Made by a program: the position numbers and the translations under genes
In this document: piece after piece, positions 9,725 to 62,715 of the stretch
How positions within the stretch are numbered: the stretch's first letter is position 1
How the letters are laid out: the number at the start of each line of letters is the position of its first letter
Assembly: GCA_964440935.1 (NCBI GenBank)
Contig: CAYTTY010000014.1
Span: 12,311-76,310, forward strand
Source of the DNA: an uncultured Ignavibacteria bacterium
GTDB taxonomy: Bacteria; Zixibacteria; MSB-5A5; WJJR01
DNA: 64,000 nucleotides
Reading direction: 5' to 3'
The notes under the pieces: generated by a model
Database searches by the model: none
Told to the model about the DNA's origin: nothing
Seen by the model: only the letters and a program-made list of their open reading frames with translations

Positions 9725-9985
9725 AATGCGATTGTCAGAAGAACTGTCCGATTCCAGCGTGCCCGTCATGCGCCCGCGCGTGACGGCTATCTCCCGTACC
9801 GACAAGGCGTCACCCGAGGGCGGGTGACGCCACGTATGAAGGGACCGTCGCATGGCCGTCCCGCTTGCTGTGAGCATGGTCGAACGGGCCATGCTGCACG
9901 GGCACTTCGGCTTACTCAGTGTAAACGAGGCGCCCGTGCTCCATCGCCCGCTCAATCGGAGGACAATTCTGGCAATCGCTATAAC
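9725..9985. repeat. Family-A TIR element, copy A1 (about 260 bp)
   Basis: Left end is GCGATTGTCAGAAGAACTGTCCGA and right end is AATTCTGGCAATCGCTATA, which are inverted. The interior shares the hairpin GCATGGCCGTCCCGCTTGC.GTGAGCATGGTCGAACGGGCCATGC with copy A2, and the GTCACGCG/GTCACCCG hairpins with A8. Confidence 0.8.
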
Positions 9986-10102
9986 CAACAGATACCCATT
10001 CACGGATTCCCGCACTGACCGACATAAATAAAGAGCACCTATCCGAATCCTGAATCAGTCAGTCGGTGCGGTGCCCGTGGATCATTTGTCAGCGAGTCAC
10101 CA

Positions 10103-12955
10103 ATGACGGATATGAGCTCATCCCCGATGCCGGCCGACAGGACGGCAATGCTGAATGTCGATCAATTGCGCATGATCGTTGAACAGCTTCCGGCGGTGCT
10201 GTGGACGACCGACCGTGAGTTGCGTTTCACGTCATCGTTTGGAGCAGGATTGGCGCAGCTTGGCCTGAAGCCGGGTCAAGTGGTGGGAGTGACTCTGCAG
10301 AAATTCTTCCAGATCGATGATCCGGCGTATGTTGTTTTGGCTGCTCATCGGCGAGTTCTCACCGGCGAGAGTGTGTCGTTTGAGGTCGAGTGGGTGGGCA
10401 ATTCATACGACGTGCACGTCGAACCGCTCCGCAACGACGCCGGAGAGATTGTCGGCTGCATCGGTATCGCCCTCGATGTGACGGACCGTTTTCGTGCCGA
10501 GCAGGCGCTGCATCAGCGAATGGAGGCGGAGACGGTCGCGCTCGAGATTTCGCGCCTGTTTGCGGGAACGCAATGGACGGATATCGGCTCGGTGCTCAAT
10601 TCCGCGCTGGAACGAATCGGCGTATATCTCGGAGCCGACCACGTGGACATCGCATTGGCATCGCCCGACGGGCGATTATACCAGGTTCTTCACCGGTGGG
10701 ACGATCCCGAGATCGGATCCCTCGACGTTCCGGACATCATCCCCGCTGAGACGATTGACTGGGTGCTTCGTCAGGTGACGATCAACCGGTACCTCGTGGT
10801 TCCCGACGTGACTAAACTGCCCCCGACCGACCAATGCGAGGTTCCCGAATTCGTCCGCCGTGCACAGTCGTCTGCGTGGGTTGGTATTCGGAATGAGGGA
10901 CGGGTCATTGGCAAGGTGGCCATCATGTGGCGACGGCAGACAATGGAGCTGACCGATGCCCAGATCGCACCACTGATTGTACTGGCCGATATCATCGCGA
11001 CGGTGATACACCGACAATCCATTGAACAACGACTGCACGAATCGCGCCGACAATTGTCGGCACTGATGAGCAATCTGCCCGGCATGGCCTATCGCTGCGG
11101 CAATGATCGCAATTGGACGATTGAATTTGTCAGCGACGGATGTCGGGATCTAACCGGGTATGCGGCTGATGAGTTAATCGGCAACCGGGTGGTCAGCTAT
11201 GCCGCACTCATCGTTCCCGAGGACCGCGACATGGTGTGGCGGGAGGTGCAGGCGAGCGTCGACAGCCAGACGCCGTTTCGGATCGTTTATCGCATCGCTG
11301 ACCGTAAGGGAACCGTCAAATGGGTTTGGGAACAGGGGATCGCCATCTACGATAGCGATGGGTCGGTCATTGCACTCGAGGGATTCATTTGCGACATCAG
11401 CGAGCGCAAGCGCGCCGAGATCGAACGTCAGAAGTTTGTCTCCCTCGTGGAGAACAGCGGCGACGGTGTGATCATGTGCTCGCTGGACGGGCGGACGCTG
11501 TACATGAATCCGGCGGCGCGGGCTCTGCTGGGCATCCCGCGCCAGTCCGATATTTCGCGGCGCAGCATGGTGGAGTGGTATTGTGACCATCGCGGCGGGG
11601 ACCACCCCGAGGCGCATTTGGTCGAAGCGAAGCGGACAGGCCAATGGGTCGGGGAGGTAGCACTCAAACATCAGGATACCGGCGAGGCGATTCCGGTGCG
11701 CCAGAATGTCTTCCTGGTGAGGCAAAACGATGACGAACCGCTGTGTATTGCGGTACTGCTTCACGATCTGCGCGAAGAGAAGCACGCCGACGAGTTGCTG
11801 ATGCGCGCCAAACGGCTCGAAACGGCAGGCCAACTCGCCGGCCAGATTGCGCATGATTTCAATAACTTGCTGGGACCCTTGGTGGCGTATCCGAACCTGA
11901 TACGGTCGCGCATCAATGACATGTCGGCAAATGAGGACATGTTGCGCGACATGGAAGAGGCGGCCAAACGCATTGCCGAAATCAACCAGGAATTGCTGAC
12001 CTTAGGACGCCGTGGCCACTACAACATACAGGCCTTGGATATCAATCAACTGATTGGGCGGACATTGCGTGCAACCACGATACCGGAGCACGTCAACGTT
12101 ATAAGAGAACTGAAGGGCTGTCTGGCGCCGGTGCTGGGTGGCGGTGCCCAGTTGATCCGGGCGTTGTCGAACATCATCGTGAACTCGTGCGATGCGATGC
12201 CACGCGGCGGGACACTCACTGTGCGCACGTCGGAATGCCGTCTCGATGGAAAACATCTTCGCGGACGAACCGTACCGGCGGGCAAGTATGTGCGCATCGA
12301 TATTGCCGACAGCGGACACGGGATTCCGAGCGAAATTATTGATCGCGTGTTTGACCCGTTTTTCACCACGCGCAAGGCCGACAAGGGGCGTGGTTCGGGT
12401 CTCGGATTAGCGGTCGTCTACTCGGTGATCGAGGATCATGAAGGGTATGTCGATGTGACATCAACGCCGGGTGTTGGCACCACCTTCAGTATCTACCTGC
12501 CGGTCTCTGAAGACGCTGCCGAGTCATCCGCCCACTCGGACAGAGTTCCCCGGGGACATGGTGAGCGCGTGCTGGTTGTCGACGATGATTTGATGCAATT
12601 GCGGATTGTTGAACGGATGTTGCACGAATTGGATTACGATGTTACCACGGTGGACAGCGGCGAAGCGGCGGTGGAGATGGCGCGACACGGTGCTTACGAC
12701 CTTCTGCTGCTCGATATGCAAATGAATGGCATCGACGGCGCTGAAACGTTTCGTCAGATCCGGCGTTACAATCCGCGTCAACGGGCCGTGATCGTGTCGG
12801 GATATGCGGGTACCGAGCGCGTGGCATCAGCACTGGCTGCAGGGGCCTCCGGCTTGATTCAGAAGCCGGTGGATGTCGCGTCGTTGGCGCGAATGATGAA
12901 GCAGGCGTTGAGTGGTACCGTGGCGGCAAGTGCTCAGTCCACGGACGCGCGATAG
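10103..12955 (+). CDS. Hybrid sensor histidine kinase (PAS/GAF/PAS-PAS, HisKA, HATPase_c, receiver)
   Basis: 950 aa. It has an H-box (IAHDFNNLL), an ATPase G-boxes region (DSGHGIP...GSGLGLA) and a C-terminal REC domain (VLVVDDD...LLLLDMQMNGIDG). Confidence 0.9.
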   Translation: MTDMSSSPMPADRTAMLNVDQLRMIVEQLPAVLWTTDRELRFTSSFGAGLAQLGLKPGQVVGVTLQKFFQIDDPAYVVLAAHRRVLTGESVSFEVEWVGNSYDVHVEPLRNDAGEIVGCIGIALDVTDRFRAEQALHQRMEAETVALEISRLFAGTQWTDIGSVLNSALERIGVYLGADHVDIALASPDGRLYQVLHRWDDPEIGSLDVPDIIPAETIDWVLRQVTINRYLVVPDVTKLPPTDQCEVPEFVRRAQSSAWVGIRNEGRVIGKVAIMWRRQTMELTDAQIAPLIVLADIIATVIHRQSIEQRLHESRRQLSALMSNLPGMAYRCGNDRNWTIEFVSDGCRDLTGYAADELIGNRVVSYAALIVPEDRDMVWREVQASVDSQTPFRIVYRIADRKGTVKWVWEQGIAIYDSDGSVIALEGFICDISERKRAEIERQKFVSLVENSGDGVIMCSLDGRTLYMNPAARALLGIPRQSDISRRSMVEWYCDHRGGDHPEAHLVEAKRTGQWVGEVALKHQDTGEAIPVRQNVFLVRQNDDEPLCIAVLLHDLREEKHADELLMRAKRLETAGQLAGQIAHDFNNLLGPLVAYPNLIRSRINDMSANEDMLRDMEEAAKRIAEINQELLTLGRRGHYNIQALDINQLIGRTLRATTIPEHVNVIRELKGCLAPVLGGGAQLIRALSNIIVNSCDAMPRGGTLTVRTSECRLDGKHLRGRTVPAGKYVRIDIADSGHGIPSEIIDRVFDPFFTTRKADKGRGSGLGLAVVYSVIEDHEGYVDVTSTPGVGTTFSIYLPVSEDAAESSAHSDRVPRGHGERVLVVDDDLMQLRIVERMLHELDYDVTTVDSGEAAVEMARHGAYDLLLLDMQMNGIDGAETFRQIRRYNPRQRAVIVSGYAGTERVASALAAGASGLIQKPVDVASLARMMKQALSGTVAASAQSTDAR

Positions 12956-12971
12956 TGGTGTGAGATTTGAC

Positions 12972-13001
12972 GAAAACCGTTGATGACCATAAACGGTTTT
13001 C
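12972..13001 (+). terminator. Hairpin with T-tract downstream of the hybrid kinase
   Basis: GAAAACCGTT-gatgaccata-AACGGTTTTC lies 17 nt after the stop codon. The loop sequence also resembles the start of repeat family C. Confidence 0.45.
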
Positions 13002-13026: not shown

Positions 13027-13078
13027 CACCCGGCTGAAGCCGAGTGTCAAAGTACATGACGCCGGCTTGAAGCGGGCT
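13027..13078. repeat. Family-F two-hairpin unit, copy 1
   Basis: CACCCGGCTGAAGCCGAGTG-tcaaag..catga-GCCGGCTTGAAGCGGGCT. The same unit occurs at 43459-43510 and inverted at 23012-23062. Confidence 0.75.
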
Positions 13079-13926: not shown

Positions 13927-14337
13927 TTCTCTGTCTCCATCAAAGTGTATTGAACCAGCCTTCTCCGTCTGTTGTCCGGTCGCGTCACCGGCGGCCGTAC
14001 ATACGCAATGGCAAGGGGCGTGCCGGGCCGTGGAAATTGTTGTGGAATAACAAGTTTAATTGTGGCTTGAGAATTTTGGAACTGAAGGAGGCACGGGAAT
14101 TGGATGCCGATCATGTAAGTGTGCACAAAAATGAGTCGTGGATCTCTTTCGAGTGTCTTGGCAGACCCCAAGAATTGCGAACATACGCAGACGACATTGT
14201 CTTGGGGAGGCCCGTGTGGAAGAGCTGTCCGTGCAGAAAATGATCGCCAAGCCCCCTTAACTTCTATGAAGTGTCGGCGAGGGGCCGTATTAAAAAGTGG
14301 ATTGCAAGATATACGCCCCAGATGGCTGCGGCCGTCT

Positions 14338-14372
14338 GGCCCCCCGGGGCTTCGTGCCCCGGGGACTTTTTT
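14338..14372 (+). terminator. Strong intrinsic terminator in a low-GC spacer
   Basis: CCCCGGGGC-ttcgt-GCCCCGGGG is followed by TTTTTT. It ends 2 nt before the ATG of the NYN-like ORF. Confidence 0.6.
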
Positions 14373-14374
14373 AT

Positions 14375-14638
14375 ATGGCAATGACTCGGGTAGCTTTCTT
14401 CATCGATGGATTCAATCTGTATCACGCTATGATCGGTGATGCAGAATTGCTCAAAACCAAGTGGTTAGACCTCTCCAAGCTCGGTCAGTCACTGCTTTCG
14501 CGGGACCAAGAACTCGTCGGTGTCTATTACTTTACGGCGTATCCACCTTGGGATGCCAACAAACAGAAACGCCACATGACCTATGAGAGGTCTTTGATCG
14601 ATTATCCGCAGTTGCAATTTCGGATATTCCTTGCGTAA
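14375..14638 (+). pseudogene. NYN/LabA-like domain fragment (N-terminal about 85 aa only)
   Basis: MAMTRVAFFIDGFNLYH... is the typical NYN N-terminal acidic motif. The ORF stops far short of a full NYN domain and has no room for its own promoter. G+C is visibly lower than in the flanks. Confidence 0.5.
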
Positions 14639-14673
14639 CTAAGTTACTACTCAACATCGTGTATGAGGGAACG

Positions 14674-15387
14674 ATGAGATTATTGTACGTTGACGAGTCA
14701 GAATCCAATAATCGAGTTACGATGGTCGGAATCTCGATTTCGGAGTCGAGCTGGCGACAGTTTTTCGATCGTCTCTTGGCTTTCAGAAAACAAATTGCAA
14801 TTCAATTCGGGATTAAGTTGAGAGATGAATGGCATGCTCGAGATATTTGGAGGAATTCTGGTATAGTATTTGACCGAAAGCTGGGATTCGATCATGCAAA
14901 GCGAAGACAGTTCTTTCGCACCGTGGCTCTCTTCGCGAGGAATTCACCAGAAATAGAGATATTTGTTACATCGCTTCCACGCCCAAATTCGCTTGAAAGA
15001 GCTTGGAGTCGTCTGATCCAGCGATTCGAAAACGACCTTTCCAGGCGGTCAGAAAGAGGCGTCGTCGTTGCAGATGGTGGTCACGATTACACGTATCGCA
15101 AGGTATCCCGTAAGATGATGGCCTTCAATCCGATTCCCAGCAGAATTCACCAAGGTCAATCCCTGAACTCACCCGTACTGAGCATTATCGAGGATCCTTT
15201 CTTTAGGGATTCACACGACTCCTACCTTATTCAACTCGTCGACGTCATCTGCTGGCTGTGTAGGGTCCGACACGACGCAACGAATACACAGCGACATTGG
15301 GGAATCAATGAGATATACAAGGCTCTGAAGCCAGTACTGAAACTGCAGGCATCAAAACACGACCCGTATGGATTTGTCCTAAAATGA
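14674..15387 (+). CDS. DUF3800 domain protein
   Basis: MRLLYVDESE... is the hallmark N-terminal DES motif of DUF3800. The GAGGGA RBS is at 14665-14670. The gene is AT-rich relative to its neighbours. Confidence 0.7.
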   Translation: MRLLYVDESESNNRVTMVGISISESSWRQFFDRLLAFRKQIAIQFGIKLRDEWHARDIWRNSGIVFDRKLGFDHAKRRQFFRTVALFARNSPEIEIFVTSLPRPNSLERAWSRLIQRFENDLSRRSERGVVVADGGHDYTYRKVSRKMMAFNPIPSRIHQGQSLNSPVLSIIEDPFFRDSHDSYLIQLVDVICWLCRVRHDATNTQRHWGINEIYKALKPVLKLQASKHDPYGFVLK

Positions 15388-15389
15388 AG

Positions 15390-15417
15390 GCCCCCATCTC
15401 ATTGCTGAGATGGGGGC
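15390..15417 (+). terminator. Hairpin terminator after the DUF3800 gene
   Basis: GCCCCCATCTCA-ttgc-TGAGATGGGGGC begins 3 nt after the stop codon. The downstream T-tract is weak. Confidence 0.45.
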
Positions 15418-15658
15418 AATTCCTCTCCAGCCAGAGGCCGAGCCAGAAGGCTCGGTGTGGCTGCACTCATTGTACGTGTACGATCTAAATGCATTTGGGC
15501 TATATCCGCCAATACCCATCTCTTACGACCGCAGGGAATAGCAGTGCGGCAATGATAGTTGAAGTCGATTACTGCCGCTGTCGCTACTCTTCGTCAGTTT
15601 CCACATGAGGGACTCACGGGGACCCCAATGCCAAAACAAGAGTGAATTTGTAATTGAG

Positions 15659-16402
15659 TCATTCTGTCCCGATCCCCGGTGACGTCAGATACATCATCCC
15701 CGTGGGGGCGGGTTGGCCGCCGGCGGGTTCGATTGTGACGAGGAATTCGGGCATTTCCTCTTCTTCGATTTCATCGAGCATGATCATCGCGCTGCCATCC
15801 TCGTTGACGGTGAAAGTGCCGACACTGGTCGGCTGACCGTCGCGCATGACCCAGAGTTGATACTCCATGCCTTCGGGGTTTTCGGGGAGCGCATACATGA
15901 AGACCACGGCTTCACCGCGCATCGGATCAACCACCACTTTGCCGAACGCCTGTTCATTGGGACCGACACCTTCGAGGTCGGCGAAGGACATTCCCGGCAT
16001 GCTCAGCAGGTTGGTCACATCCTGCGTTTCAACCAGTTCGCGGCGCAGATTGTCGGCTTCACGTGCAGCGTTTTGATATTGGAAGAACATGATCACGGCG
16101 GCCGCGACGGCGGCTCCGGTGACCAACCAAGTCAGGTTGATGCGCGTGGCCGGCCGGGATGATGTACCGGATTTGCTGCGCGCCTCAATCGACGACATCA
16201 CATTGGATTTCATGTGTGCCGGGGGATCGTGTTGCGGCACATCCCTGGCGAGGTTGGCGCAGACATCGTCGAGTTCCTTCAGCCGTTGCGCGCACTCCGG
16301 GCAGTTGGTGGCGAGATGCACCTCGACATCGCGATGCTCCCCGGTCGTGAGTGTGCCGAGCACATACGATTCGAGCAGTTGGTAGGCGTCGTTGTGGGTC
16401 AT
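15659..16402 (-). CDS. Anti-sigma factor (zf-HC2 N-terminus, one TM segment, RskA-like periplasmic domain)
   Basis: H...CPECAQRL motif, a central TM segment (WLVTGAAVAAAVIMFF) and a C-terminal ...YQLWVMRDG...TIEPAGG RskA-like domain. The start overlaps the sigma-gene stop by 4 nt (ATGA). Confidence 0.85.
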   Translation of the reverse strand: MTHNDAYQLLESYVLGTLTTGEHRDVEVHLATNCPECAQRLKELDDVCANLARDVPQHDPPAHMKSNVMSSIEARSKSGTSSRPATRINLTWLVTGAAVAAAVIMFFQYQNAAREADNLRRELVETQDVTNLLSMPGMSFADLEGVGPNEQAFGKVVVDPMRGEAVVFMYALPENPEGMEYQLWVMRDGQPTSVGTFTVNEDGSAMIMLDEIEEEEMPEFLVTIEPAGGQPAPTGMMYLTSPGIGTE

Positions 16403-17067: not shown

Positions 17068-17202
17068 TCTACCGGTATTCTCCTGACAGATTCAAGGGGT
17101 GGGATGGGGGGCGAGAGACTGGAATTGGCCAACGTCGATGCGTATAATCAGACCAGGTTGAGGAGATGATGATGACGTAGTAGACGATAAGCAGCCGGGA
17201 CA

Positions 17203-17292
17203 ACCCCGGGGGGTGCCCCTAACGCCACAGGCGGGGGCTGAGACAACACCCCTAGAACCTGATCTGGATCACGCCAGCGTAGGGAACGGGTT
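17203..17292 (+). promoter_or_regulatory. TPP (THI-box) riboswitch aptamer
   Basis: GGGGUGCCC...GGGGCUGAGA..ACACCC..GAACCUGAUCUGGAUCACGCCAGCGUAGGGAA matches the conserved THI-element core (CUGAGA, ACCUGAUCUGGAU.A.GCCAGCG.AGGGAA). It lies about 90 nt upstream of the first gene of the thiamine cluster. Confidence 0.9.
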
Positions 17293-17383
17293 TTTGAGAT
17301 ACACAGCACGTTTTGAAGGGCCGTTCCGCAGTGGTGGAGCGGTCCGTTGCTTTTGGGATGAGGTCCCGTGAAAGGAGTCAACG

Positions 17384-18469
17384 ATGGAACAGGCAACGGC
17401 ACAGAAGGCACAACTTCCTGATATCGGTAAGGTCTCCGAATCGGTATTCAACGAGGTGATACTGCCGCATCTCGGACGGAACCGACCGGAGGTGGTGGTC
17501 GGGCCGCAGAACGGCGTCGACGTCGGTGTGGTCGATATCGGCCACGGACAAGTGATGGTGTCGACCACCGATCCGGTGTTTATCGTGCCGCCGTACGGTT
17601 GGGAACGGTCGGCGTGGTTTGCGATCCACATTCTCGCCTCCGACGCGTGCACGTCGGGGCTGGCGCCGAATTATATTACCATCGATTTGAATCTGCCGAT
17701 GAGCATCACCCGCGACGAATTGGAAACGATGTGGCAGACGATGCATCGCGAATGCGACAAGATCGGCATGGCGGTGGTGACCGGACACACCGGTCGGTAC
17801 CAGGGATGCGATTACCCGATGGTCGGCGGTGCGACGGTGATTTGTATCGGCCCGGAGGACAAATATGTGACGCCAACAATGGCGAAGCCGGGCGACCGGG
17901 TGATTATCACCAAGGGCGCCGCCATTGAAGCGACCGGTTTGTTTGCCGTCACCTTTCCCAAGCAGGTGGCCGACGCATACGGCGAGAAGCTGGCCAAAGA
18001 CGCCGAAGAGGTGTTCTGGCAGATGACGACGGTCGATGATGCCATGACTGCAGTGCAAGTCGGTGTGCGCGATGACGGCGTCACGGCGATGCACGATGCC
18101 ACCGAATGTGGTGTGTGGGGTGGACTGTCGGAAGTGGCGCAAGCCTCGCAAGTTGGAATGAGAATCGAGAAGGGTGAGATCGTGGTGCAGGAGCCGGTGC
18201 AGAAAGTGTGTGAGATGTACGAAATCGATCCGTTCACGGCGATCAGTGAAGGCACTCTGATTATTACCTGCCGGCCGAATAAAGCGTCCGACGTGGTGAA
18301 ACGCCTGAACGATAAGGGTATTGCCGCAACGCAAGTCGGCGAAGTGGTCGACCCTTCGGAAGGACGGAAGTATTATGAGAATGGCGTCGCACATGACCTG
18401 GTGCATCCGCAGGTGGATCCATTTTGGGCGGCGTATGGCAAGGCAATGAGTGAGGCGGCGGGGTCGTGA
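17384..18469 (+). CDS. AIR-synthase-related (PurM/ThiL/HypE/SelD superfamily) protein of unknown specific function
   Basis: 361 aa. An AIRS N-domain (GVDVGVVDIG...MVSTTDP) and an AIRS_C-like domain are present. It lacks the HypE C-terminal Cys and the SelD N-terminal Cys/Sec motifs. AAAGGAG RBS precedes the start. It is the first gene after the TPP riboswitch. Confidence 0.7.
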   Translation: MEQATAQKAQLPDIGKVSESVFNEVILPHLGRNRPEVVVGPQNGVDVGVVDIGHGQVMVSTTDPVFIVPPYGWERSAWFAIHILASDACTSGLAPNYITIDLNLPMSITRDELETMWQTMHRECDKIGMAVVTGHTGRYQGCDYPMVGGATVICIGPEDKYVTPTMAKPGDRVIITKGAAIEATGLFAVTFPKQVADAYGEKLAKDAEEVFWQMTTVDDAMTAVQVGVRDDGVTAMHDATECGVWGGLSEVAQASQVGMRIEKGEIVVQEPVQKVCEMYEIDPFTAISEGTLIITCRPNKASDVVKRLNDKGIAATQVGEVVDPSEGRKYYENGVAHDLVHPQVDPFWAAYGKAMSEAAGS

Positions 18470-19308: not shown

Positions 19309-19967
19309 CGACGCAACCCGATCCACGACGCTGGGGGTTGTATGCGATCACCGATGAATCGTTGTCGCGCAGCCGGACACATGTCGAGATTGCCCAGGCG
19401 GTGATAGCGGGCGGGGCCGATGTGGTGCAGTTGCGCGACAAGACCACGTGGGGACGGCGTCTGTATGACACAGCGGGACGCATTCGTGAATTGACCACCG
19501 ACGCCGGGCGTGCATTTGTCATGAATGATCGTGTCGATATCGGGATGGCGGTCGCTGCCGATGGTGTGCATGTCGGTGTCGATGATCTGCCGGCGGAAGC
19601 GGCACGGCGGCTCATCGGGCCGGATCGCATTCTGGGGCTATCGGCGCGCAATCTGGACGAAGCGATACATGCCGAAGCGCAGGGCGCCGATTACATCGGC
19701 TTTGGTCCGATCTTCGAAGCGCGCAAAACGAAACCCGATACGGTCGATCCCACGGGGTTGGACGGATTGAAACAGGTGTGTGAGAGGGTGCAATGCCCTG
19801 TTATTGCGATTGGTGGGATTACGCTCGACAATGCTGCCGATGTGATTCGCGCAGGGGCCGATGGTGTGGCGGTAATATCGGCTATCGTAGCGGCCGATGA
19901 CATTGCGGCCACGACGCGCGAGTTCACAGAGCGGATTGCGCAGGCGAGGGAGAGTGTGGCGCGGTGA
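19305..19967 (+). CDS. thiE: Thiamine-phosphate synthase ThiE
   Basis: LYAITDE...VVQLRDK...VMNDRVDI...GVHVG...GFGPIF...IGGI motifs are present. The start overlaps the tenA stop (ATGA). Confidence 0.92.
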   Translation: MTTQPDPRRWGLYAITDESLSRSRTHVEIAQAVIAGGADVVQLRDKTTWGRRLYDTAGRIRELTTDAGRAFVMNDRVDIGMAVAADGVHVGVDDLPAEAARRLIGPDRILGLSARNLDEAIHAEAQGADYIGFGPIFEARKTKPDTVDPTGLDGLKQVCERVQCPVIAIGGITLDNAADVIRAGADGVAVISAIVAADDIAATTREFTERIAQARESVAR

Positions 19968-20992
19968 GCGAACGCGATCCGACAGTCGCCGAGATCGGCG
20001 AGTTTGGTTTGATCGATCGCATTCGGATGATTTGCGGGACCGAGACGTCGCCGGACATGCTGTTAGGCATCGGCGATGACACGGCGGTCATACGGCTCGA
20101 CGACCATCGCGCCATGGTTGCCACCTGCGATATTCAAGTCGAAGATGTTCATTTTCAATGGGAGACCATCACGCCGTATCAACTCGGCCGCCGCAGCATG
20201 GCGGTCAATCTGAGTGATATTGCGTCAATGGGGGCGGCGCCGTCGTATGCGTTGACATCGTTGGCGATGCCATCATCGCTGCCCGCCGCGCACTTCGATA
20301 AGATGTTTGCCGGCATGAACGATGAAGTGCGCGAGGTTGGGGCATATCTGGTCGGCGGCAATCTGGCGCGTTCGAGCGAACGGTTGGTCGTCGATGTGTT
20401 CATGTGGGGGATTGTCGATCCGGCGCAGATGCTGACCCGGTCCGGTGCGCAGGTCGGCGATATGGTGTATGTGACCGGAGCGCTGGGGTCGTCGACAGCC
20501 GGGCTCGATGTGCTGTTGCGGTATGGGCCGTCGTGTGCGGATGAGTATGCCGAAGTGGTGCGTGCGCATCTGGAGCCCCGCGCACGCGTGCGTGAAGGAC
20601 AAACCATTGCCGGGTCAGGCCTGGCCACGTCGATGATTGATGTCAGCGACGGGTTGGCGGCTGATATCGGCCACATTTGCGACAGCAGTCAGGTCGGTGT
20701 GGAAATCGACGAGGCACAAATCCCGTTTGACGCGGTGTTGTTCAAGATTGCACGCAACGCCGAGCGTGATCTGCGGGAATATACCCTTTATGGCGGCGAG
20801 GACTACGAACTGCTGTTTACCGTTCGTAGCACAGATGCAGAAGCGATGGAGCGCCTGGCGCAGGAGACGGGTTTTGCGTTGCGGCAAATCGGGCGTGTCG
20901 TCGCGGCGAGTGATGGACGCACACTGATTGACCCGCAGGGAACACGTCATGCGCTTGATCCAAAAGGATGGGATCATTTTCGAGTGGTGTGA
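19964..20992 (+). CDS. thiL: Thiamine-monophosphate kinase ThiL
   Basis: IGEFGLIDRI...LGIGDDTAVI...CDIQVEDVHF is the canonical ThiL N-terminus, followed by an AIRS_C domain. The GTG start overlaps the thiE stop. Confidence 0.9.
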   Translation: MSERDPTVAEIGEFGLIDRIRMICGTETSPDMLLGIGDDTAVIRLDDHRAMVATCDIQVEDVHFQWETITPYQLGRRSMAVNLSDIASMGAAPSYALTSLAMPSSLPAAHFDKMFAGMNDEVREVGAYLVGGNLARSSERLVVDVFMWGIVDPAQMLTRSGAQVGDMVYVTGALGSSTAGLDVLLRYGPSCADEYAEVVRAHLEPRARVREGQTIAGSGLATSMIDVSDGLAADIGHICDSSQVGVEIDEAQIPFDAVLFKIARNAERDLREYTLYGGEDYELLFTVRSTDAEAMERLAQETGFALRQIGRVVAASDGRTLIDPQGTRHALDPKGWDHFRVV

Positions 20993-21026
20993 GGAAATCG
21001 TAATATTCCCACGCACAACGCATGTG

Positions 21027-21228
21027 GGTGGCCCGGACCTTGGGGTGTGTTGAAAATGGTGATTCAATGCTGAGCACATGCAGTAGGGGCGTATTGAATA
21101 CGCCCTCTGTGCGTAATCGGTATGGGAACGGGGCGTACTCAGTACGCCCCTACAGATGATCGTTTTCTCGATGCGTGATGTGATCAGTTCCTGGACTTGT
21201 TCAACACACCTTAAGGTCCGGGGCACCC
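21027..21228. repeat. Family-B TIR element, copy B1, located inside the thi operon
   Basis: GGCCCGGACCTTGGGGTGTGTTGAAAA ... TTGTTCAACACACCTTAAGGTCCGGGGC form the inverted termini. The interior carries the hairpins GGGGCGTATTGAATACGCCC and GGGGCGTACTCAGTACGCCCC. Confidence 0.8.
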
Positions 21229-21277
21229 GACACCCGAAATGGCAATGACACGAGTTTGACGCAACAAAGGATGGATC

Positions 21278-22105: not shown

Positions 22106-22124
22106 TCGGTCGCTCTTGGGTTGC

Positions 22125-22262
22125 ACTGTAGGGGTGTATTGCATACGCCCCCTGTGCGTCACCGCAACCGAGAGAGGGCGTACTCAGAGCGCCGTTTGGA
22201 GGTAGTCTTGTCGATTTACAAGATGATGGTGTCTCAGATTTTTTCAACACACTCTCCAGCCA
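22125..22262. repeat. Partial family-B element (right half only)
   Basis: It contains GTAGGGGTGTATTGCATACGCCCCC and GGGCGTACTCAGAGCGCC hairpins and a single terminal TTTTTTCAACACAC. No matching left terminus is present. Confidence 0.6.
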
Positions 22263-22276
22263 GGTGATAGCGACTC

Positions 22277-22888: not shown

Positions 22889-23011
22889 GTCGAGGAATCG
22901 AATTCGTGGCCCTGATGGGGCTTTATCCATCAGGGCCTGCATAACCACGTTGGAGTTGTTGAGATTGCTCGGTGTTGTACCACCCGATGGAAAGAGCGTA
23001 CCTGAACACAG

Positions 23012-37780: not shown

Positions 37781-37796
37781 ATCCGTTTTGGAGACA

Positions 37797-43740: not shown

Positions 43741-43746
43741 GGATAT

Positions 43747-49424: not shown

Positions 49425-49684
49425 ACACTGCGAGTGCGAGATGTCGATTCGTCTGGGGTGCGTTTGTATCAATACCGCATTGCCGCGGCCTGACCGCACA
49501 TGCCGGTTGAAGAGTGCAACACCGGAATGAATCCTGGCGTTGGGCCAGCAGAATCTGACTCGTCTCGCCGACGTTCTGCGGTGGAATGCCGACCACGATG
49601 TCGTTGTGTTTCGTGTATCCGTGGCAATCACTGACGACCGGTTGATTCGCCGTTTCAACAGGGACACACTCCGCACATTGGTTC

Positions 49685-50991: not shown

Positions 50992-51255
50992 GGATGATTG
51001 GCTCTTTTCTGCGGGTCGAAAATGCTCTCTCGCCAAAATGGCTCCATGTTAAATGGGGAAATGAATTCAAAACGCAAGAAGGAAATCATCGGGTTTTGTC
51101 AATAAATGCCGTATGGCACACCAGCCTGATGGCTGCTGAGCGGGGGATGCCGCTCTTGGCGAGGTATTTGAAATCAGGATCAACTTTGTATCTAATTGGC
51201 AGGCCCCCTGTGGGGGCAAAGCCGTTAAGGCACCGCCGAGACTGGCGGGAGTGAC

Positions 51256-51654
51256 GTGCGATCAATAGGATGTATTATCGTCGTGGGAATCACGGCCCTG
51301 TTGTTTGTGGCTTATGCCAATGCAGACAACAGCGTCGCCCAATGTGGAAGTTTGAAAGGCGAGATGAAGAGGAAGGTCGAGGGTAGGGCCGAAAGGGAGA
51401 CCGACACGGCGATCGACGATGCAGTCGATGAGGGTTTCGACAAGGCCACCGACAGTCAGGGTGATGACACGTACAATCAGGAATTGAGTCAGAAACGGGC
51501 CGCGGTGGTGAACGCGCACCTCTGCAACAAGTACGGCATCGCTCCGGATCGGCTCGATACCACGCGCTTGGGCGAAAGCAAGCCTGTCGACTCGAACGAT
51601 ACGCCCGAGGGCCGGACAGAATAACCGTCGGGTGGAATTGGTGATGCTGGGTTA
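51256..51654 (+). pseudogene. Decayed OmpA-family gene (half an OmpA_C domain with a terminal frameshift)
   Basis: ...TDSQGDDTYNQELSQKRAAVVNAHL...GIAPDRLDTTRLGESKPVDSNDTPEGR matches the second half of an OmpA_C domain. The expected ..QNNRRVELV ending is present only in another frame (up to TAG 51652-51654). The first half of the domain is missing. Confidence 0.6.
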
Positions 51655-51659
51655 GAACT

Positions 51660-51996
51660 GAATGTCAGAATTCCGTTCCGTTTGAGAAAGCGCGACGGTG
51701 GGTTTGCTTTGCACGAACGCTGGGGCGCCACGGGCCTTGAGGGGGAGCGTTGAAGAAGGCGCTACATTGTTGAGAACATGCATTTGCAGGGGAGGGTTGT
51801 TTACACTGAGCGAAGCCGAAGTGAATACGCCCCTTTCGCGTAAACCGTTGCGGGTGCGGGCGTACTCAGTACGCCCCTACGAATGATTGTCTCGTCAACA
51901 TGCGTTCGGACTGCAACTCAGGCCTTGTCAACACACCCCCTTGAGGCCTGTGCCACGCTCGTACAAACGGACAATACTTATGACAACCGCTATAGA
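51660..51996. mobile_element. Family-A element, copy A6, with a nested family-B element that contains a family-C fragment
   Basis: The left terminus is degenerate (AATGTCAGAATTCCGTTCCG) and the right terminus is CTTATGACAACCGCTATAG. The B-type ends are GCCACGGGCCTTGAGGGGGAGCGTTGAAGAA / CTTGTCAACACACCCCCTTGAGGCC. The interior GTTTACACTGAGCGAAGCCGAAGTGAATACGCCC matches family C. Confidence 0.7.
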
Positions 51997-52062
51997 GCTG
52001 ATCTGAATTCTCAGCCTAAGACAAGCCGGTGGCGATGTCTACGCCACCGGCTTACGTCGATT

Positions 52063-52299
52063 CTACCCCTTCAGGTCCTTCAAGGCGGCCCCGAAGTTGA
52101 TGTGGTACGGGGTGTTGCCGATGAGGAGTGCAGGGACCGACTCGATCCCGGCCTCCTCGGCCTCACCCAGGCGGTCCTTTTGATTGCCCAGGTGGACGAT
52201 TTCGACGTCGAAACGCGACTTGTCGAGCGCGTCGACGACGGTTTGCTCGGCGGATACACAGACAGGGCATCCGGCGTGGTAGAATGTGGCTTTGGTCAT
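52063..52299 (-). CDS. Small thioredoxin-fold protein (glutaredoxin/Thioredoxin_3-like, CPVC motif)
   Basis: 78 aa, MTKATFYHAGCPVC...IESVPALLI. AGGAGG RBS precedes the start. Confidence 0.75.
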   Translation of the reverse strand: MTKATFYHAGCPVCVSAEQTVVDALDKSRFDVEIVHLGNQKDRLGEAEEAGIESVPALLIGNTPYHINFGAALKDLKG

Positions 52300-56842: not shown

Positions 56843-56869
56843 TGCGTTCTGACTATTCGGTCGAAGTTT

Positions 56870-56914
56870 CCCACCCTACCAGTTCTCGACTTCGTGGAGA
56901 ACTGGTAGGGTGGG
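56870..56914. terminator. 18-bp perfect hairpin between convergent genes (bidirectional terminator candidate)
   Basis: CCCACCCTACCAGTTCTC-gacttcgtg-GAGAACTGGTAGGGTGGG, preceded by TTT on the + strand. Confidence 0.5.
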
Positions 56915-56942
56915 GCACCCCGCATGGATCTTCATAAACTCA

Positions 56943-60917: not shown

Positions 60918-61140
60918 TGGAAAACCGTTGATGGTCATCAATGATCTACAGAGAGAGATTGGCATCCGATGATTGTCGCGCCTGGTGACAGCGACCACCC
61001 AGTGAACCGAATACAAGGTAACGTGCTCACTTTGGGGTCGGGGCCTGTTGTTTACACTGAACGAAGCCGAAGTGAATACGCCCTTTCACCGCTGCGGGTT
61101 ACGTGCCGTGGGCGTCTGCCATACGCCGCTACGATTGCTT
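60918..61140. repeat. Family-C element, copy C1 (about 220 bp)
   Basis: It aligns by eye across its full length, with high but imperfect identity, to the reverse complement of 62405-62620 (...ATGGTCATCAA.GATC.ACA.AGAGAGATTGGC...GTTTACACTGA.CGAAGCCGAAGTGAATACGCCCTTTCACCGC.GCGGGTT.CGTGCCGTGGGCGT...). Confidence 0.8.
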
Positions 61141-61162
61141 GTGTTCGTAAATTCGACTTCGG

Positions 61163-61951
61163 TTAAATCAACCCACTGCCGAGGCCTGCGGCGATCAGTA
61201 CCAAAAGTACTCCGGTTAAGGTCTGCACGCGGCTGATCGTGATCTTGTGCAGGAACCGTTTGCCGATCAGGACACCGGTGAAAGCGGCGATGATTCCGGT
61301 CAGAATGAGTGGCCATTGATTTCCGGCGAATGGACCAAGTGCTCCGCCGAGGAAGAACATCACGGCATAGATCGTGATGCGGGCCAGATCGACCAAAAAC
61401 CCGATGGCGGCATTGGTCCCCACAAACGCGGTCGCGGGAATGCCTACTTTGGCCAGAAATGCTGAGCGGAGTGCCCCCTGATGACCGGAGAGGCCGCCAA
61501 AGAAGCCTGACAATACACCGCCGAATGAGAGATAGCGTTGATCGATGGTGAACTCACGAAGGTGCGGAAGGAGTTCGAAGAACGCGAAGGCGAGCATCAG
61601 GACAGCCATGATCACCTTGAGCGGAGTGATGACGGCCGTGTGAGGACCCAATGAGTATTGTGCCCATTGACCGAGTTGCGATACATAGCCCAGCGTGGCC
61701 GCTCCGACAAATGCGGCCAGAATCGCGGGGACGCCAAAGCGCCAGACAATTCCCCGATCAGCATACTGTCCGACCACGAGGACCTTGAAGAGACTGTTCG
61801 CACCGTGCACAACGGCGGTTGATGCGACAGCAATGTCCACCGGCAGGAATATCGCAAAGACCGGCATCAGTAATGTGCCGAGACCGAAGCCGGAGTACAG
61901 CGTCAGTCCGGAAACCAGCAGTGCAGCGATGGCGATGAGGAGAAAGTCCAT
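61163..61951 (-). CDS. Sulfite exporter TauE/SafE family membrane protein
   Basis: 262 aa, about 8 TM segments, Gly-rich repeated halves (..GGLSG.QGALRSAFL..). Confidence 0.85.
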   Translation of the reverse strand: MDFLLIAIAALLVSGLTLYSGFGLGTLLMPVFAIFLPVDIAVASTAVVHGANSLFKVLVVGQYADRGIVWRFGVPAILAAFVGAATLGYVSQLGQWAQYSLGPHTAVITPLKVIMAVLMLAFAFFELLPHLREFTIDQRYLSFGGVLSGFFGGLSGHQGALRSAFLAKVGIPATAFVGTNAAIGFLVDLARITIYAVMFFLGGALGPFAGNQWPLILTGIIAAFTGVLIGKRFLHKITISRVQTLTGVLLVLIAAGLGSGLI

Positions 61952-62048
61952 AAAATCGACCCAGAGACCGGTGCGTGTGCTCTATATACTGACTGTCACA
62001 CCATGGGTCGAGTGTAAATGCCGCAGGGCAAGTACGGGACTGTTCTGT

Positions 62049-62715
62049 TATAGCGATTGTCGGATGTCCTGTCCGATTGAGAAGAAGTGAGGTTTGGTCT
62101 ACTTGCATATTCACGTTCGGGTGCCACGGGGCTTTAGGGGCGTGTTGAAATACCCAGAAGGTCCTCGCGTAGGTGCGGCTCTTAGCCGCACCGCTCCGGC
62201 TAAGAGCCGCACCTACACGAGGTTATGATTGTCTCATGCAGTTACATCATCTGGTCCGGAGTCAACACACGACTTTCTCAACAGGTCCCTTTAGGCCCGT
62301 GAATCGGGACCGTGTGAACGTGGAACCACGGGCCTAAAGGTCATCAACTATTCCACTGGACATCCCAGTTCCGCGAAGGTTGAGACCAGTTGGGTGTGCG
62401 TTACACCATCACTCGTAGCGGAGTGTTGCATACGCCCACGGCACGCAACCCGCGGCGGTGAAAGGGCGTATTCACTTCGGCTTCGCTCAGTGTAAACAAT
62501 AGGCCCCGACCCCAAAATGAGCACGTCATCTTCGCATTCGGCCGACTGGCTGGTCGCTGTCGCGATGCGCGAGAATCATGGGAGGCCAATCTCTCTATGT
62601 GGATCGTTGATGACCATAAGGCCCGTGGCCCGGGGATTGTGCCGACGCGGACACACGGGCCTGAAGCCCCGTGGTACCCCGATCCAAACGGACAAGAGTT
62701 CTGACAATCGCTCTA
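62049..62715. mobile_element. Composite family-A element, copy A7 (about 670 bp), containing a family-B element and inverted family-C copy C2 (62405-62620)
   Basis: The A termini are TATAGCGATTGTCGGATG ... GTTCTGACAATCGCTCTA. Internally, GCCACGGGGCTTTAGGGGCGTGTTGAAA...GAGTCAACACAC...CCCTTTAGGCCCGTG is B-like, and C2 follows. Confidence 0.75.

Follow-up and report, generated by a model that had tools for sequence, protein, structure and literature searches.

REP dimers have been reported in three other species within host palindromes of the types TATAG.., GGG..GCTTGAAAAACC.. and CCGSSCC(n3-4)GGSSCGG (PMC3733652), the second of which is also written GGG..GCTT-GAAAAACC. These three palindromes resemble family A, the termini of family B and the target hairpin of the locus analyzed here, a 64,000-nt stretch of DNA (the window) from a member of the Zixibacteria, which are not among the eight phyla listed in that study (PMC3733652). 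However, in the window all three kinds co-occur and nest, and the hosts, being associated with target duplications, behave as transposons and not merely as "target palindromes". A further likeness is to the REPIN/RAYT system (Bertels & Rainey 2011, PMC3116915), in which two inverted REP hairpins and a spacer form one long hairpin; the copies found here are likewise intergenic and multi-copy. In contrast to that system, there is no RAYT gene within the window and most REP dimers are cargo in TIR elements instead of free REPINs.

In enterobacterial BIMEs, Y and Z PUs alternate in tandem and are joined by defined linkers. The window shares with them the intergenic mosaics of palindromic units, the small module set and the spurious ORFs, but its mosaic appears to have arisen as elements with TIRs inserted into one another and duplicated their targets, and its modules differ from the enterobacterial ones, as had been proposed by the initial annotation of this DNA. 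HUH/Y1 transposition, as carried out by IS200/IS605 and RAYT enzymes, is not known to generate direct target duplications of this kind. REP-targeting insertion sequences (IS1397, ISKpn1, ISPa11, ISPpu9/10) use a hairpin as target, as do B and C; those known are members of the IS3 or IS110 family and create duplications of 0-4 bp, whereas that of B and C comprises 8 bp. The Correia elements of Neisseria (CREE/NEMIS) are, like A, TA-flanked MITEs, with a length of about 100-160 bp and a TIR that begins with TATAG, and to our knowledge no cognate transposase has been identified for them. Neisseria spacers, too, are interleaved mosaics, made of Correia elements, dRS3 (CGTC-1) and other repeats, but the hosts and interiors of Correia elements are unrelated to those of A. 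When aligned with one Correia variant, the A TIR agreed at 18 of 27 positions, a weak similarity picked post hoc that was equalled by 37 of 5,000 shuffles, and the other three variants scored poorly. Like IS630/Tc1/mariner-derived MITEs such as RUP and Nezha, A is TA-flanked, and two conserved blocks are present in its TIR of about 27-30 nt. Such a TIR would suit a bipartite HTH transposase like that of ISY100, for which a 24-bp TIR suffices for transposition.

The spacers of this Zixibacteria segment are crowded with small non-coding mobile elements, one inside another. The repeat set is a known kind of bacterial repeat DNA that is unusually dense, and it does not represent a new kind of system. 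Motif searches and self-BLAST located all six families named in the initial annotation where it had placed them, and far above the chance level estimated from dinucleotide-preserving shuffles: the A motif had 8 matches with at most 2 mismatches (0.00 expected), the B motif 6 exact matches (0.11 expected), the D motif 5 matches (0.52 expected) and the E motif 4 matches (0.13 expected). Copies are diverged, with 72-96% identity in self-BLAST, and both families and copies exceed those listed initially. The additional families are hairpins of the types GCCGTCACGCG..CGCGTGACGGC, GGCCCTGATG..CATCAGGGCC and AAACCGTT..AACGGTTT. Modules cover 3,799 nt, or 33% of the window's non-coding DNA (11.4 kb), and overlap coding sequence by 48 nt only. 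They occupy 15 of the 23 spacers of at least 150 bp and none of the 16 shorter ones, in agreement with the view that a small shared set of hairpin and TIR modules makes up most long spacers. Among 40 perfect hairpins whose stems are 8 bp or longer, 31 are located in the non-coding part, which represents 19% of the window.

Family A is best read, from its sequence, as a TA-flanked MITE. The eight copies originally counted are refined here to seven full or nearly full elements and one half element with 14 recognizable termini in the window:
A1, 9724-9983, unstranded: 260-bp TA-flanked MITE (both TIRs found, flanks read).
A2, 24167-24346, unstranded: 180-bp MITE, host of D1 (inverted repeat I3, TIRs).
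A3, 33366-33518, unstranded: 153-bp MITE, deletion variant of the A1 type (self-BLAST, TIRs).
A4, 42771-42952, unstranded: 182-bp MITE without guest (DNA fold, z = -6.0).
A5, 43632-43740, unstranded: half element with one TIR and an A1-type left half.
A6, 49687-50024, unstranded: 338-bp MITE, A4 plus the B4 insertion.
A7, 51662-51994, unstranded: MITE with truncated left TIR, host of B5.
A8, 62049-62715, unstranded: 667-bp MITE hosting B6 and C2, each in an internal hairpin of its own.

All 14 termini have the form Y-TA-TAG...CTA-TA-R, and the elements are bounded by inverted repeats of the type TA|TAGCGATTGTCAGAA-nnnn-GTTCCG; this TIR is bipartite and about 27-30 nt long. The interior of A1 contains GCCGTCAC-type hairpins and a loop-expanded hairpin. 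In self-BLAST, 43732-43632 of A5 is 85% identical to 9732-9833 of A1, and the end of A5 lies 6 nt from the stop codon of an FtsX-family gene. An amine-oxidase gene on the minus strand (50020-51036) takes its stop codon from the terminal TA|TAG of A6; the C-terminus of this protein was compared with its ortholog in the MAG Bin_224, to which the source genome is close, the latter being of Zixibacteria and not of an enterobacterium-like or planctomycete type. Around the amine-oxidase gene the two genomes have different A copies, and this comparison recovered no clean empty site for A, so that a TA target duplication is inseparable from a TATAG terminus.

Families B and C are best interpreted as MITEs that enter a CACGGGCC-TNNA-GGCCCGTG hairpin at its loop and duplicate 8 bp of this target. 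The window holds six B copies, five full and one partial, consistent with the initial count of at least six, and two C copies plus a shared internal fragment:
B1, 21044-21210, unstranded: MITE with TIR GG(N)GTGTTGAAAA (inverted repeats I4 and I16).
B2, 22128-22253, unstranded: partial B, right half, downstream of thiD (self-BLAST).
B3, 37808-37975, unstranded: MITE with a REP dimer inside (inverted repeats I8 and I19).
B4, 49743-49887, unstranded: MITE with a GGGAGGGCGAGGCTCCC hairpin, flanked by a direct CCTTCAGG duplication (z = -9.5).
B5, 51745-51937, unstranded: MITE flanked by an exact CCTTGAGG duplication (self-BLAST).
B6, 62139-62285, unstranded: MITE with a GTAGGTGCGGCTCTTAGCCGCACC dimer and flanks GCTTTAGG and CCTTTAGG (20-bp stem, z = -8.4).
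C1, 60925-61150, plus strand: C element with truncated right end (self-BLAST).
C2, 62341-62622, minus strand: 282-bp C element with TIR TCATCAAC(T/G)AT (inverted repeat I10).

Evidence for insertion comes from the pair A4 and A6. Self-BLAST aligned 42813-42953 to 49885-50025 with 95.7% identity, and A6 differs from A4 by a single 156-nt gap, the remainder being about 96% identical. A4, which contains two intact target hairpins (42814-42833 and 42858-42877), is, as judged from this alignment, the empty site and A6 the filled site for a B insertion. The duplication made by B and C at the target hairpins is 8 bp long, CCTNNAGG. It is direct and exact around B4 and B5, whereas 7 of 8 positions are retained around B6 and 6 of 8 around C2, which occupies the same hairpin position in the second hairpin of A8 (flanks CCTAAAGG and CCATAAGG). 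No clear duplication was seen at B1, which lies in a decayed target hairpin (21026-21228), at B3 or at the Bin_224 copy L064, and the flanks of another Bin_224 copy, L037, are inverted and not direct. B copies of Bin_224 likewise lie within hairpin loops, one of them in an F-type hairpin, and the central non-palindromic dinucleotide is direct in four clear cases and inverted in one. The nesting seen in the window, with D1 in A2, B4 in A6, B5 in A7, and B6 and C2 in A8, bears out the proposed hierarchy in which A hosts B and D. The two C copies match over 215 bp (60931-61144 against 62617-62403, 86.5%), with a partial match at 51796-51890. The reported partial third copy, and with it the notion of a C fragment inside B, is not retained: this segment is a loop-expanded REP dimer that forms the interior of B5 and is common to the C elements, and it does not comprise C transposon ends; of the two copies described as full, C1 is right-truncated.

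The explanation that we favor, with a probability of about three in four, is that the spacers consist of non-autonomous mobile elements, belonging to several families, which have inserted into one another in layers. A would most likely move by cut-and-paste into TA dinucleotides, using a Tc1/IS630-type transposase that may be supplied in trans. A in turn bears the short GC-rich hairpins that are kin to the free-standing F hairpins, and B and C, with inverted ends of their own, would integrate exactly at the dyad of these targets. The 8-bp duplication suggests a DDE-type enzyme that cuts a palindromic target with a stagger of 8 bp. As a last layer, B and C carry head-to-head GTAG-tagged REP dimers and D is itself a TGTC-tagged REP dimer; these dimers probably spread in a REPIN-like manner by a Y1 (RAYT-type) enzyme or by a passive ride in their hosts. 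Elements would pile up as Russian dolls because insertion into the hairpin loop of an existing element is harmless to the cell, and they would accumulate in spacers containing gene 3' ends, leaving promoter-only (divergent) spacers mostly clean. The initial annotation had suggested a search for a RAYT/TnpA-REP gene; neither a RAYT nor any transposase gene was found in the window, neither was present between or beside A termini in about 170 loci or 3.0 Mb, and the loci searched contained no autonomous partner for A, B or C. The enzymes invoked above are thus putative throughout.

The remaining modules are REP-type units and free hairpins. The D, E and F copies number three, two and three, as initially reported, with one additional E variant:
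D1, 24210-24300, unstranded: TGTC-tagged REP hairpins, head-to-head dimer.
D2, 29814-29902, unstranded: REP dimer as D1 (z = -5.1).
D3, 37113-37199, unstranded: REP dimer as D1 (z = -4.2).
E1, 30001-30023, unstranded: CCCTCTCCCC-GAT-GGGGAGAGGG hairpin (variant at 30084-30105).
E2, 33587-33642, unstranded: E1 arms separated by 36 nt instead of the 3-nt loop.
F1, 13027-13078, plus strand: paired hairpins CACCCGGC-TGAA-GCCGGGTG and AGCCCGC-TGAA-GCGGGCT, of the B/C target hairpin type.
F2, 43460-43510, plus strand: F-type paired hairpins (self-BLAST, as for F1 and F3).
F3, 23012-23098, minus strand: F-type paired hairpins plus a AAACCGTT..AACGGTTT hairpin.

Among the GGGCGTA..TACGCCC (GCGTA-type) hairpins, 8 of 9 have a GTAG tag on one side only, and these hairpins are paired head to head in dimers with the tags facing outward, an example being the dimer inside B1 (21083-21153, z = -8.0). 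The hairpins carried inside B and C are thus best read as GTAG-tagged REP dimers, and they resemble the GTAG superfamily with its 24 families (Di Nocera, De Gregorio & Rocco 2013, PMC3733652) in tag and dimer layout. D resembles the CGTC superfamily (Neisseria dRS3 and Rickettsia RPE-6 = CGTC-1; PMC3733652). Its unit, CTGTC-ATTCCCGC-GAAA-GCGGGAAT-CCA, comprises a TGTC tag, a stem of 8 bp that begins with AT, a loop of 4 nt and a terminal CCA, with units arranged head to head as dimers. D thus appears to be a dimer of CGTC/TGTC-tagged REPs similar in type to dRS3 of Neisseria, and it fits the published CGTC-1 definition (PMC3733652). Some modules are therefore truly REP-type. The initial annotation had read the whole as BIME-like; as a pure REP/BIME system, all modules would be REP-type palindromes in BIME-like mosaics, spread by a RAYT (TnpA-REP) tyrosine transposase. 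This reading, which we consider unlikely, accounts for the REPIN-like dimers of GTAG-tagged hairpins, for D and for the intergenic location with its bias to gene 3' ends, and "TIRYT" RAYT-like genes with long flanking TIRs (Di Nocera et al.) show that TIR families could belong to Y1 enzymes. However, the published TIRYT motif GGGGWSAS is not matched by the B TIR, the window has no Y1 gene, and the elements are nested and do not form tandem arrays in which two REP types alternate at fixed linkers, so that the BIME likeness holds for appearance but not for architecture. The long TIRs with variable cargo in A, B and C, together with the 8-bp direct duplications of B and C, point to MITE-type transposition rather than REP/RAYT spread.

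The placement and folding of the elements are also what would be expected of host-functional cis elements, namely conserved RNA or DNA structures such as terminators, mRNA stabilizers or protein-binding sites, placed by selection and not mobile DNA. All elements form long hairpins when folded (z-scores of -2.4 to -9.5), all but one of the 15 occupied spacers include the 3' end of a gene according to module coverage and gene map, only one of four divergent spacers is occupied, A6 supplies a stop codon, and the co-option of REPs and MITEs is known (PMC3733652). Nevertheless, such a role as the origin of the repeats seems very improbable: Rfam contained no matching family, apart from an unrelated TPP riboswitch, terminator-like and promoter-like sites in the window showed no enrichment relative to shuffles, and a T tract is missing from most hairpins. 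Moreover, termini stay while interiors turn over between related genomes, and in different phyla the cargo found between these termini is unrelated.

This turnover is apparent in Bin_224, a fragmented MAG of which a sample was used to count copies outside the window. At the orthologous site of A1, the first 12 nt of the left TIR are kept, with the same mutated start as in the window, and the interior is different. Across 56 kb from twelve other Bin_224 contigs, further copies were found of B, D, the GCGTA-type REP, the GTGCGG hairpin and the loop-expansion motif, and none of these was detected in about 2.4 Mb of other genomes. The extended A TIR is more widespread, occurring 12 times in Bin_224, more than 30 times in several Desulfobacterales MAGs, 13 times in the Olavius Delta3 and Delta1 symbionts and 7 times in marine "Proteobacteria" MAGs. 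In an independent assembly (Logan, run SRR7048227), four contigs were each 100% identical to the window, and all eight contig ends lie within repeat elements; for instance, L276 starts within A3 and L274 extends from C1 into A8. Because of the recurrence in Bin_224 and the identity of the Logan junctions, the two objections considered initially, that modules are confined to the window or that the spacers are mis-assembled, do not hold, with the Logan contigs covering the edges of nested spacers and not their full span. Chimeric joins or collapsed repeats, which the breaks of both the Bin_224 and Logan assemblies at these repeats, a sign that they are hard to assemble, and the lack of independent support for the internal order of nested spacers might suggest, are the least credible explanation, given that Logan contigs run from unique DNA into elements on both sides with these junctions reproduced at 100% identity, that they include all of D3 (L276) and B2 (L197), that Bin_224, at about 80-85% nucleotide identity, shows the same families, the same nesting (D in A, B within hairpins) and the syntenic remnant of an A element, and that copies are too diverged for collapsed repeats.

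Elements with the A TIR outside the window are 60-340 bp long and have unrelated interiors, the shortest form being represented by a 60-bp "bare" A at the Bin_224 locus L022. Finally, the three peptides that the initial annotation had quoted as products of spurious ORFs generated by the repeats are all encoded where it had located them.

In the window, which belongs to an uncultivated phylum, new families of MITEs and REP-type hairpins are densely packed and nested in the intergenic spacers as a mosaic; all are elements of known kinds. Family A is a TA-flanked MITE, B and C are MITEs sited in hairpin loops, D is a dimer of TGTC-tagged REPs, and E and F are hairpins; numbered names (A1, B1 and so on) denote individual copies. 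Repeated, dispersed and diverged copies, terminal inverted repeats (TIRs) and nesting are directly visible. Relative to dinucleotide-preserving shuffles, the seed motifs of A (8 matches versus 0.00 expected), B (6 versus 0.11), D (5 versus 0.52) and E (4 versus 0.13) are in large excess in the window, and its self-BLAST recovered the C pair at 60931-61144 and 62617-62403 (86.5% identity), three copies of F, and two A copies that are 95.7% identical across 141 bp. The six families and their nested hierarchy, as described in an initial annotation, are thus real and lie where it had placed them; the description was accurate and slightly conservative, and the spurious peptides that it quoted are encoded exactly in the repeats. 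With a relaxed profile, 14 A termini were identified, corresponding to seven complete or nearly complete elements (A1 to A4 and A6 to A8) and a half element, A5. There are six copies of B, two of C plus a shared internal fragment, three of D, and two of E plus a variant, and several hairpin families absent from the initial list are also present. The nested spacers are the following:

42459-43746, nested spacer
49425-50019, nested spacer
51625-52285, nested spacer
61952-62752, nested spacer

The gene map, which is based on ORFs, codon-position GC and Pfam, is that of an ordinary chromosomal segment encoding an RND pump, histidine kinases, thiamine genes, ABC transporters and a C69 peptidase, and it contains no transposase. 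Compared with this map, the modules amount to 3.8 kb, a 33% share of the non-coding DNA (11.4 kb), and overlap coding sequence by 48 nt only. They occur in 15 of the 23 spacers of at least 150 bp and in none of the 16 shorter ones. The non-coding 19% of the window holds 31 of the 40 perfect hairpins with a stem of at least 8 bp, and every element folds as a long hairpin (z-scores of -2.4 to -9.5). All but one of the 15 occupied spacers include a gene 3' end, and one of the four divergent spacers is occupied. This distribution is consistent with purifying selection that protects promoters from disruption, and likewise with a role of the hairpin loops of resident elements as safe landing sites. 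The idea that the elements serve as terminators or promoters was rejected, as consensus scans showed no enrichment of terminator-like or promoter-like sites.

Judged by two proteins and synteny, the closest genome is Bin_224, a Candidatus Zixiibacteriota MAG (WJJR01); a planctomycete origin, which the hairpin types had at first suggested, was rejected on these grounds. The C69 peptidase is 95% identical to its Bin_224 copy, followed by those of other Zixibacteria at ~65-74%; the amine oxidase shares 80% identity with its Bin_224 ortholog, and the Bin_224 contig L008 is syntenic with 6260-12983 of the window at 78-85% nucleotide identity. Twelve Bin_224 contigs (56 kb) hold A termini, B, D, GCGTA-type hairpins, the GTAGGTGCGGCTCTTAGCCG hairpin and the loop-expansion motif, and essentially none of this set was found in ~2.4 Mb of loci of unrelated genomes or in loci of four more distant Zixibacteria. 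A scan of genome contigs with the 15-mer GGTGCCACGGGCCTT was too unspecific, giving chance matches across many phyla, and its loci were reused only as random background. Independent assembly data are available from Logan (run SRR7048227), where exact-protein look-ups with four proteins led to four contigs that are 100% identical to positions 21161-22933, 33467-37927, 48666-49726 and 61086-62123 of the window; the same look-up with the 950-aa histidine kinase gave no record. All eight contig ends lie inside repeats (B1, an H hairpin, A3, B3, the tandem duplication of a fasciclin gene, A6, C1 and A8), the behaviour expected of a de Bruijn assembler when it reaches multi-copy repeats. These contigs corroborate the unique-to-repeat junctions as well as D3 and B2 in full; the inner order of the largest nested spacers rests on the window assembly, with independent support at the unique-to-repeat junctions. 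The possibility that the modules are confined to the window, as a product of chimeric assembly or repeat collapse, is contradicted by the Bin_224 copies and by the identical Logan junctions. The same repeats are the reason why short-read MAGs of this lineage are in pieces of 3-15 kb, and they should be masked in gene calling and comparative analysis of Zixibacteria MAGs.

The insertion of B and C can be read from the hairpins in which they are found. An A4-type element holds two copies of the palindrome CACGGGCC-TNNA-GGCCCGTG, and the free-standing F hairpins (CACCCGGC-TGAA-GCCGGGTG and AGCCCGC-TGAA-GCGGGCT) have the same design. The ends of B are GG(N)GTGTTGAAAAA ... TTTTTCAACAC(N)CC. A4 represents the empty site and A6 the same element filled by B4: A6 equals A4 plus one block of 156 nt, which consists of B4 and a second copy of the loop region. 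The sequences concerned are:

Termini of the B or C layer, search form: GGNGTGTTGAAAAA or TCATCAACNAT
Hairpin target for B, stem and loop: CACGGGCCTTCAGGCCCGTG
Octamer expected once in the intact hairpin of an empty B/C site: CCTNNAGG
B4 flanks: CCTTCAGG on both sides, direct repeat
B5 flanks: CCTTGAGG on both sides, direct repeat
B6 flanks: GCTTTAGG and CCTTTAGG, direct repeat
B1 flanks: CCTTGGGG and CCTTAAGG, direct repeat, decayed
C2, ends TCATCAAC(T/G)AT, same position in the second A8 hairpin: flanks CCTAAAGG and CCATAAGG

The B copies of Bin_224 likewise sit in hairpin loops, one of them in an F-type hairpin. Because the duplicated octamer is nearly palindromic, its orientation was judged from the two non-palindromic central bases, which are direct in four clear cases (B4, B5, B6 and L008-427 of Bin_224) and inverted in one (the B copy L037), the rest having decayed. 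From this orientation it was concluded that B and C integrate at the hairpin dyad by means of an 8-bp staggered cut. Both families have the MITE features of TIRs and an 8-bp duplication, together with an empty and a filled site, and this pair of sites is unusually clear for a hairpin-dyad MITE with an 8-bp duplication. With its GG..TGTTG.AAA ends and 8-bp duplication, B might be regarded as an IS6/IS26-like derivative, which is not claimed here. At 12965-13000, the window aligns with a Bin_224 hairpin, GAAAACCGTT-TCA-ACGGTTTCC (L008, ~735-760), and has an additional GATGACCATAA in the loop. A 14-nt sequence there, GTTGATGACCATAA, matches C2 exactly over its right end and flank, and a past insertion of C may have left this footprint or stub.

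One end of the A copies reads Y-TA-TAGCGATTGTCAGAA-nnnn-(G/T)T(T/C)CCG (IS630-type search form, TATAGCGATTGTCAGAA), and the other is its inverted form, which is somewhat more diverged. Seven to eight copies with TIRs are present in the window and hundreds elsewhere. The flank pattern Y-TA-TAG...CTA-TA-R occurs in every copy and is compatible with a TA duplication; no clean empty site was found among the orthologous Bin_224 loci, where sites were already occupied in the ancestor or are rearranged. At the A1 site, the left terminus is retained in Bin_224 over its first 12 nt, with the mutations that it already had (TAATGCGATTGT), and a different hairpin module comes next. The insertion thus predates the divergence of the two genomes, after which its interior was replaced. 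The two genomes also differ in the elements they carry: at the amine-oxidase locus, Bin_224 has an upstream A copy that the window lacks, whereas the window has the downstream A6 that Bin_224 lacks. The stop codon TAG of the amine oxidase (50020-50025) is the terminal TAG of A6, and the protein ends in ...AKHL* in the window and in ...AKHLRS* in Bin_224, which is two residues longer. About one third of the non-coding DNA in this region is mobile-element debris, which gives rise to spurious ORFs and in one case to the stop codon of a gene.

Many of these elements carry hairpins as cargo. GGGCGTA-loop-TACGCCC hairpins lie inside B1, B2, B3 and B5; where two adjoin (B1, B3 and B5) they form pairs with the tags outward, and the B2 copy is partial. 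Eight of the nine hairpins of this type in the window have a one-sided GTAG, and GTAG-tagged dimers are found in B1, B3, B5 and C, with further copies on other Bin_224 contigs. D is a head-to-head dimer, with the tags outward in all three copies. The units and positions are:

Hairpins with GTAG at one end only: 18559, 21086, 21132, 22131, 37912, 51859, 61111, 62420
D1, right unit, general design of D: CTGTC-ATTCCCGC-GAAA-GCGGGAAT-CCA
D2, right unit: CTGTC-ATCCCCGC-GCAA-GCGGGGAT-CCA
D3, left unit: one G-T pair, CTA tail

The cargo of B6 is a GTAGGTGCGGCTCTTAGCCGCACC dimer with a 20-bp stem, and that of B4 is a GGGAGGGCGAGGCTCCC...GGGAGCCTCGCCCTCCC hairpin that recurs in loci of more distant Zixibacteria. 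This hairpin, GGGAGGGCGAGGCTCCTGCCGAGCC...GGCTCGGCAGGAGCCTCGCCCTCCC, has five copies in L204 (21.6 kb) and two in L205 (11.7 kb), both loci of other MAGs with the C69 peptidase, and thus constitutes a separate, more widely spread repeat family. B had initially been described as hosting C fragments; the sequence shared with B5 is there, and corresponds to a module common to C and B5, a REP dimer whose loop is expanded (TTCACTTCGGCTTCGCTCAGTGTAAAC). The same loop insert is present in A1 and A3, within a different hairpin. E2 has the arms of E1, but 36 nt between them instead of the 3-nt loop. An isolated long inverted repeat at 56847-56937, with an 18-bp perfect stem at 56870-56914 and GTAGGGTGGG motifs, may be another GTAG-type REP class, and the hairpin GGTGGGTGCAGAGCACCCACC-CTAC at 37055-37079 is related to it.

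In BIMEs, REP or PU units form tandem clusters in which their orientation alternates, and the linkers between them come from a few fixed motifs. The initial designation of the spacers as BIME-like holds only in a loose sense. The GCGTA hairpins fit the BIME unit (a REP palindrome of 20-40 bp with a GTAG-type tag), but A, B and C are TIR elements of 140-670 bp, and it is the architecture that excludes membership: the modules are nested rather than head-to-tail or alternating, and the composition of the spacers differs each time. The closest description is that of Di Nocera et al. 2013 (PMC3733652), which sets out the GTAG- and CGTC-tagged REP superfamilies. GTAG-tagged REPs are short GC-rich stem-loops flanked on a single side by an unpaired GTAG (PMC3733652), and the eight GCGTA hairpins agree with this definition. 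The superfamily is also marked by high genome-wide copy numbers, often as head-to-head dimers; the copies covered here are those of the window and of Bin_224 contigs. CGTC-1 REPs (dRS3/RPE-6 type) have a CGTC/TGTC tag, an 8-bp stem beginning with AT, a 4-nt loop and a CCA tail, and form mostly head-to-head dimers (PMC3733652), each of which is a feature of D, apart from the deviating D3 left unit. REP dimers were also reported inside palindromes, namely, TATAGGA... in Anabaena variabilis, GGGaaGCTT-GAAAaACC...GGTaTTTCgAAGC-gCCC in Halothiobacillus neapolitanus, and CCGSSCC(n3-4)GGSSCGG in Thermomicrobium roseum (PMC3733652). The first is reminiscent of A, the second of the B termini and the third of the target hairpin, and all three layers coexist in the window, where the target duplications indicate that such "host palindromes" are transposons themselves.

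Family A extends beyond the lineage. An exact 17-mer search with its terminus, covering species-representative genomes, gave at least 83 stretches, a sampling that would miss elements with diverged ends, and the second block GTTCCG was present in 67 among the matches listed. The loci with both blocks belong to Bin_224, several Desulfobacteraceae/Desulfobacterales MAGs, the Olavius Delta3 and Delta1 symbionts, and marine "Proteobacteria" MAGs; a metagenome scan with an extended A pattern added 88 loci. Outside the window, A-type elements measure 60-410 bp, in addition to one 814-bp copy filled with other repeats, and have the same termini and unrelated interiors. In Desulfobacteraceae ALSabin.42 (L033, L006 and L083), A-type MITEs measure ~183-214 bp and contain a GTAG-tagged REP dimer of their own, GTAGGGGAGGGG-TTTAT-CCCCTCCC ... 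GGGCGGGGATAAACCCCGCCC-CTAC, and more than 20 contigs of this MAG terminate ~120-140 nt into an A-type MITE. The ~30-nt terminus, nearly unchanged in two phyla cohabiting anoxic marine sediments, points to horizontal spread of a transposase.

The enzyme itself was sought in several ways. No transposase ORF lies between or beside A termini among the listed 83 and 88 loci, and a loose TIR-pair search of the 3.0 Mb fetched revealed no A TIR pairs 850-1,700 bp apart; an autonomous IS of the IS630/Tc1-mariner type, with A TIRs and a DDE transposase, is thus absent from these data. A search for partner TIRs up to several kb away gave no autonomous element either, candidate TIR pairs of 814-1,121 bp were negative, and plasmid and viral contig collections contained no match. 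A is hence a MITE family common to two phyla of anoxic-sediment bacteria whose autonomous partner was not found; MITEs are short non-coding elements with TIRs, multiple dispersed copies and a target-site duplication, of which A has the TIRs and the copies, and B and C the duplication as well. Literature searches on the A terminus sequence and on Zixibacteria repeats returned nothing relevant, and the large MITE survey PMC11602168 makes no mention of these elements. As to Correia elements (CREE), A lacks their 26-bp inverted repeat; its terminus matches the best Correia variant in a one-gap alignment at 18 of 27 positions, a score equalled by 37 of 5,000 shuffles, and other variants did no better than shuffles. 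This likeness is weak and post hoc, and A was not filed as a Correia element.

A may move by Tc1/IS630-type cut-and-paste into TA, as suggested by its TA flanks, by a two-block terminus of ~27-30 nt that would suit a bipartite HTH domain, and by the example of ISY100, for which ends of 24 bp suffice. B and C would be moved by a DDE enzyme that recognises palindromes or hairpins as targets. Dimers of the GTAG hairpins could be REPIN-like and perhaps RAYT-dependent. In REPIN/RAYT systems, cognate REPs flank a single-copy gene for the RAYT, a Y1 HUH transposase, and no Y1_Tnp is present among the window ORFs. D belongs to the CGTC class, which has no known transposase (PMC3733652). A broader and rather unlikely reading, to which we would assign a probability of roughly 0.15, is that A belongs to a widespread cross-phylum class of "orphan" TA-flanked palindromes (in Zixibacteria, Desulfobacterales including gutless-worm symbionts, and perhaps distantly the Neisseria Correia elements) whose mobilising enzyme is encoded in no copy, and that the hairpins it carries serve a second system specific for hairpin dyads, that of B and C with its stagger of 8 bp, as a landing pad that extends itself. 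On this reading, the insertions would not be independent of one another, and the mosaic would amount to an ecosystem of several coupled elements. Two points are of some interest, the integration at hairpin dyads with a duplication of 8 bp and the "orphan" terminus of A that crosses phyla; neither alters current concepts of bacterial repeat DNA.

Several other features of the window were noted. Its GC content drops at 14000-16000 to 0.50, as compared with ~0.58 elsewhere; this segment, which may represent a foreign island of small size, holds small ORFs lacking annotation and a DUF3800 gene (14659-15387). On the minus strand, 24743-28535 contains three large ORFs of 367, 530 and 458 aa without a Pfam match, the last of which overlaps the annotated start of a short-chain fatty acid transporter ORF on the opposite strand. 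The fasciclin/DUF4397 gene at 47134-48714 contains a 431-bp tandem duplication (47821-48251 and 48274-48704, 96.8% identity), by which a fasciclin domain was probably doubled, recently and in frame; the Logan contig L275 begins inside this duplication. The sole Rfam match is a TPP riboswitch unrelated to the repeats (RF00059, 71.7 bits; 17199-17303, plus strand), upstream of an AIR-synthase-related gene (17384-18469) that is followed by a second such gene (19964-20992) and by thiD (21278-22105). Together these look like a thiamine-related cluster, in which thiD is bracketed by two B elements.
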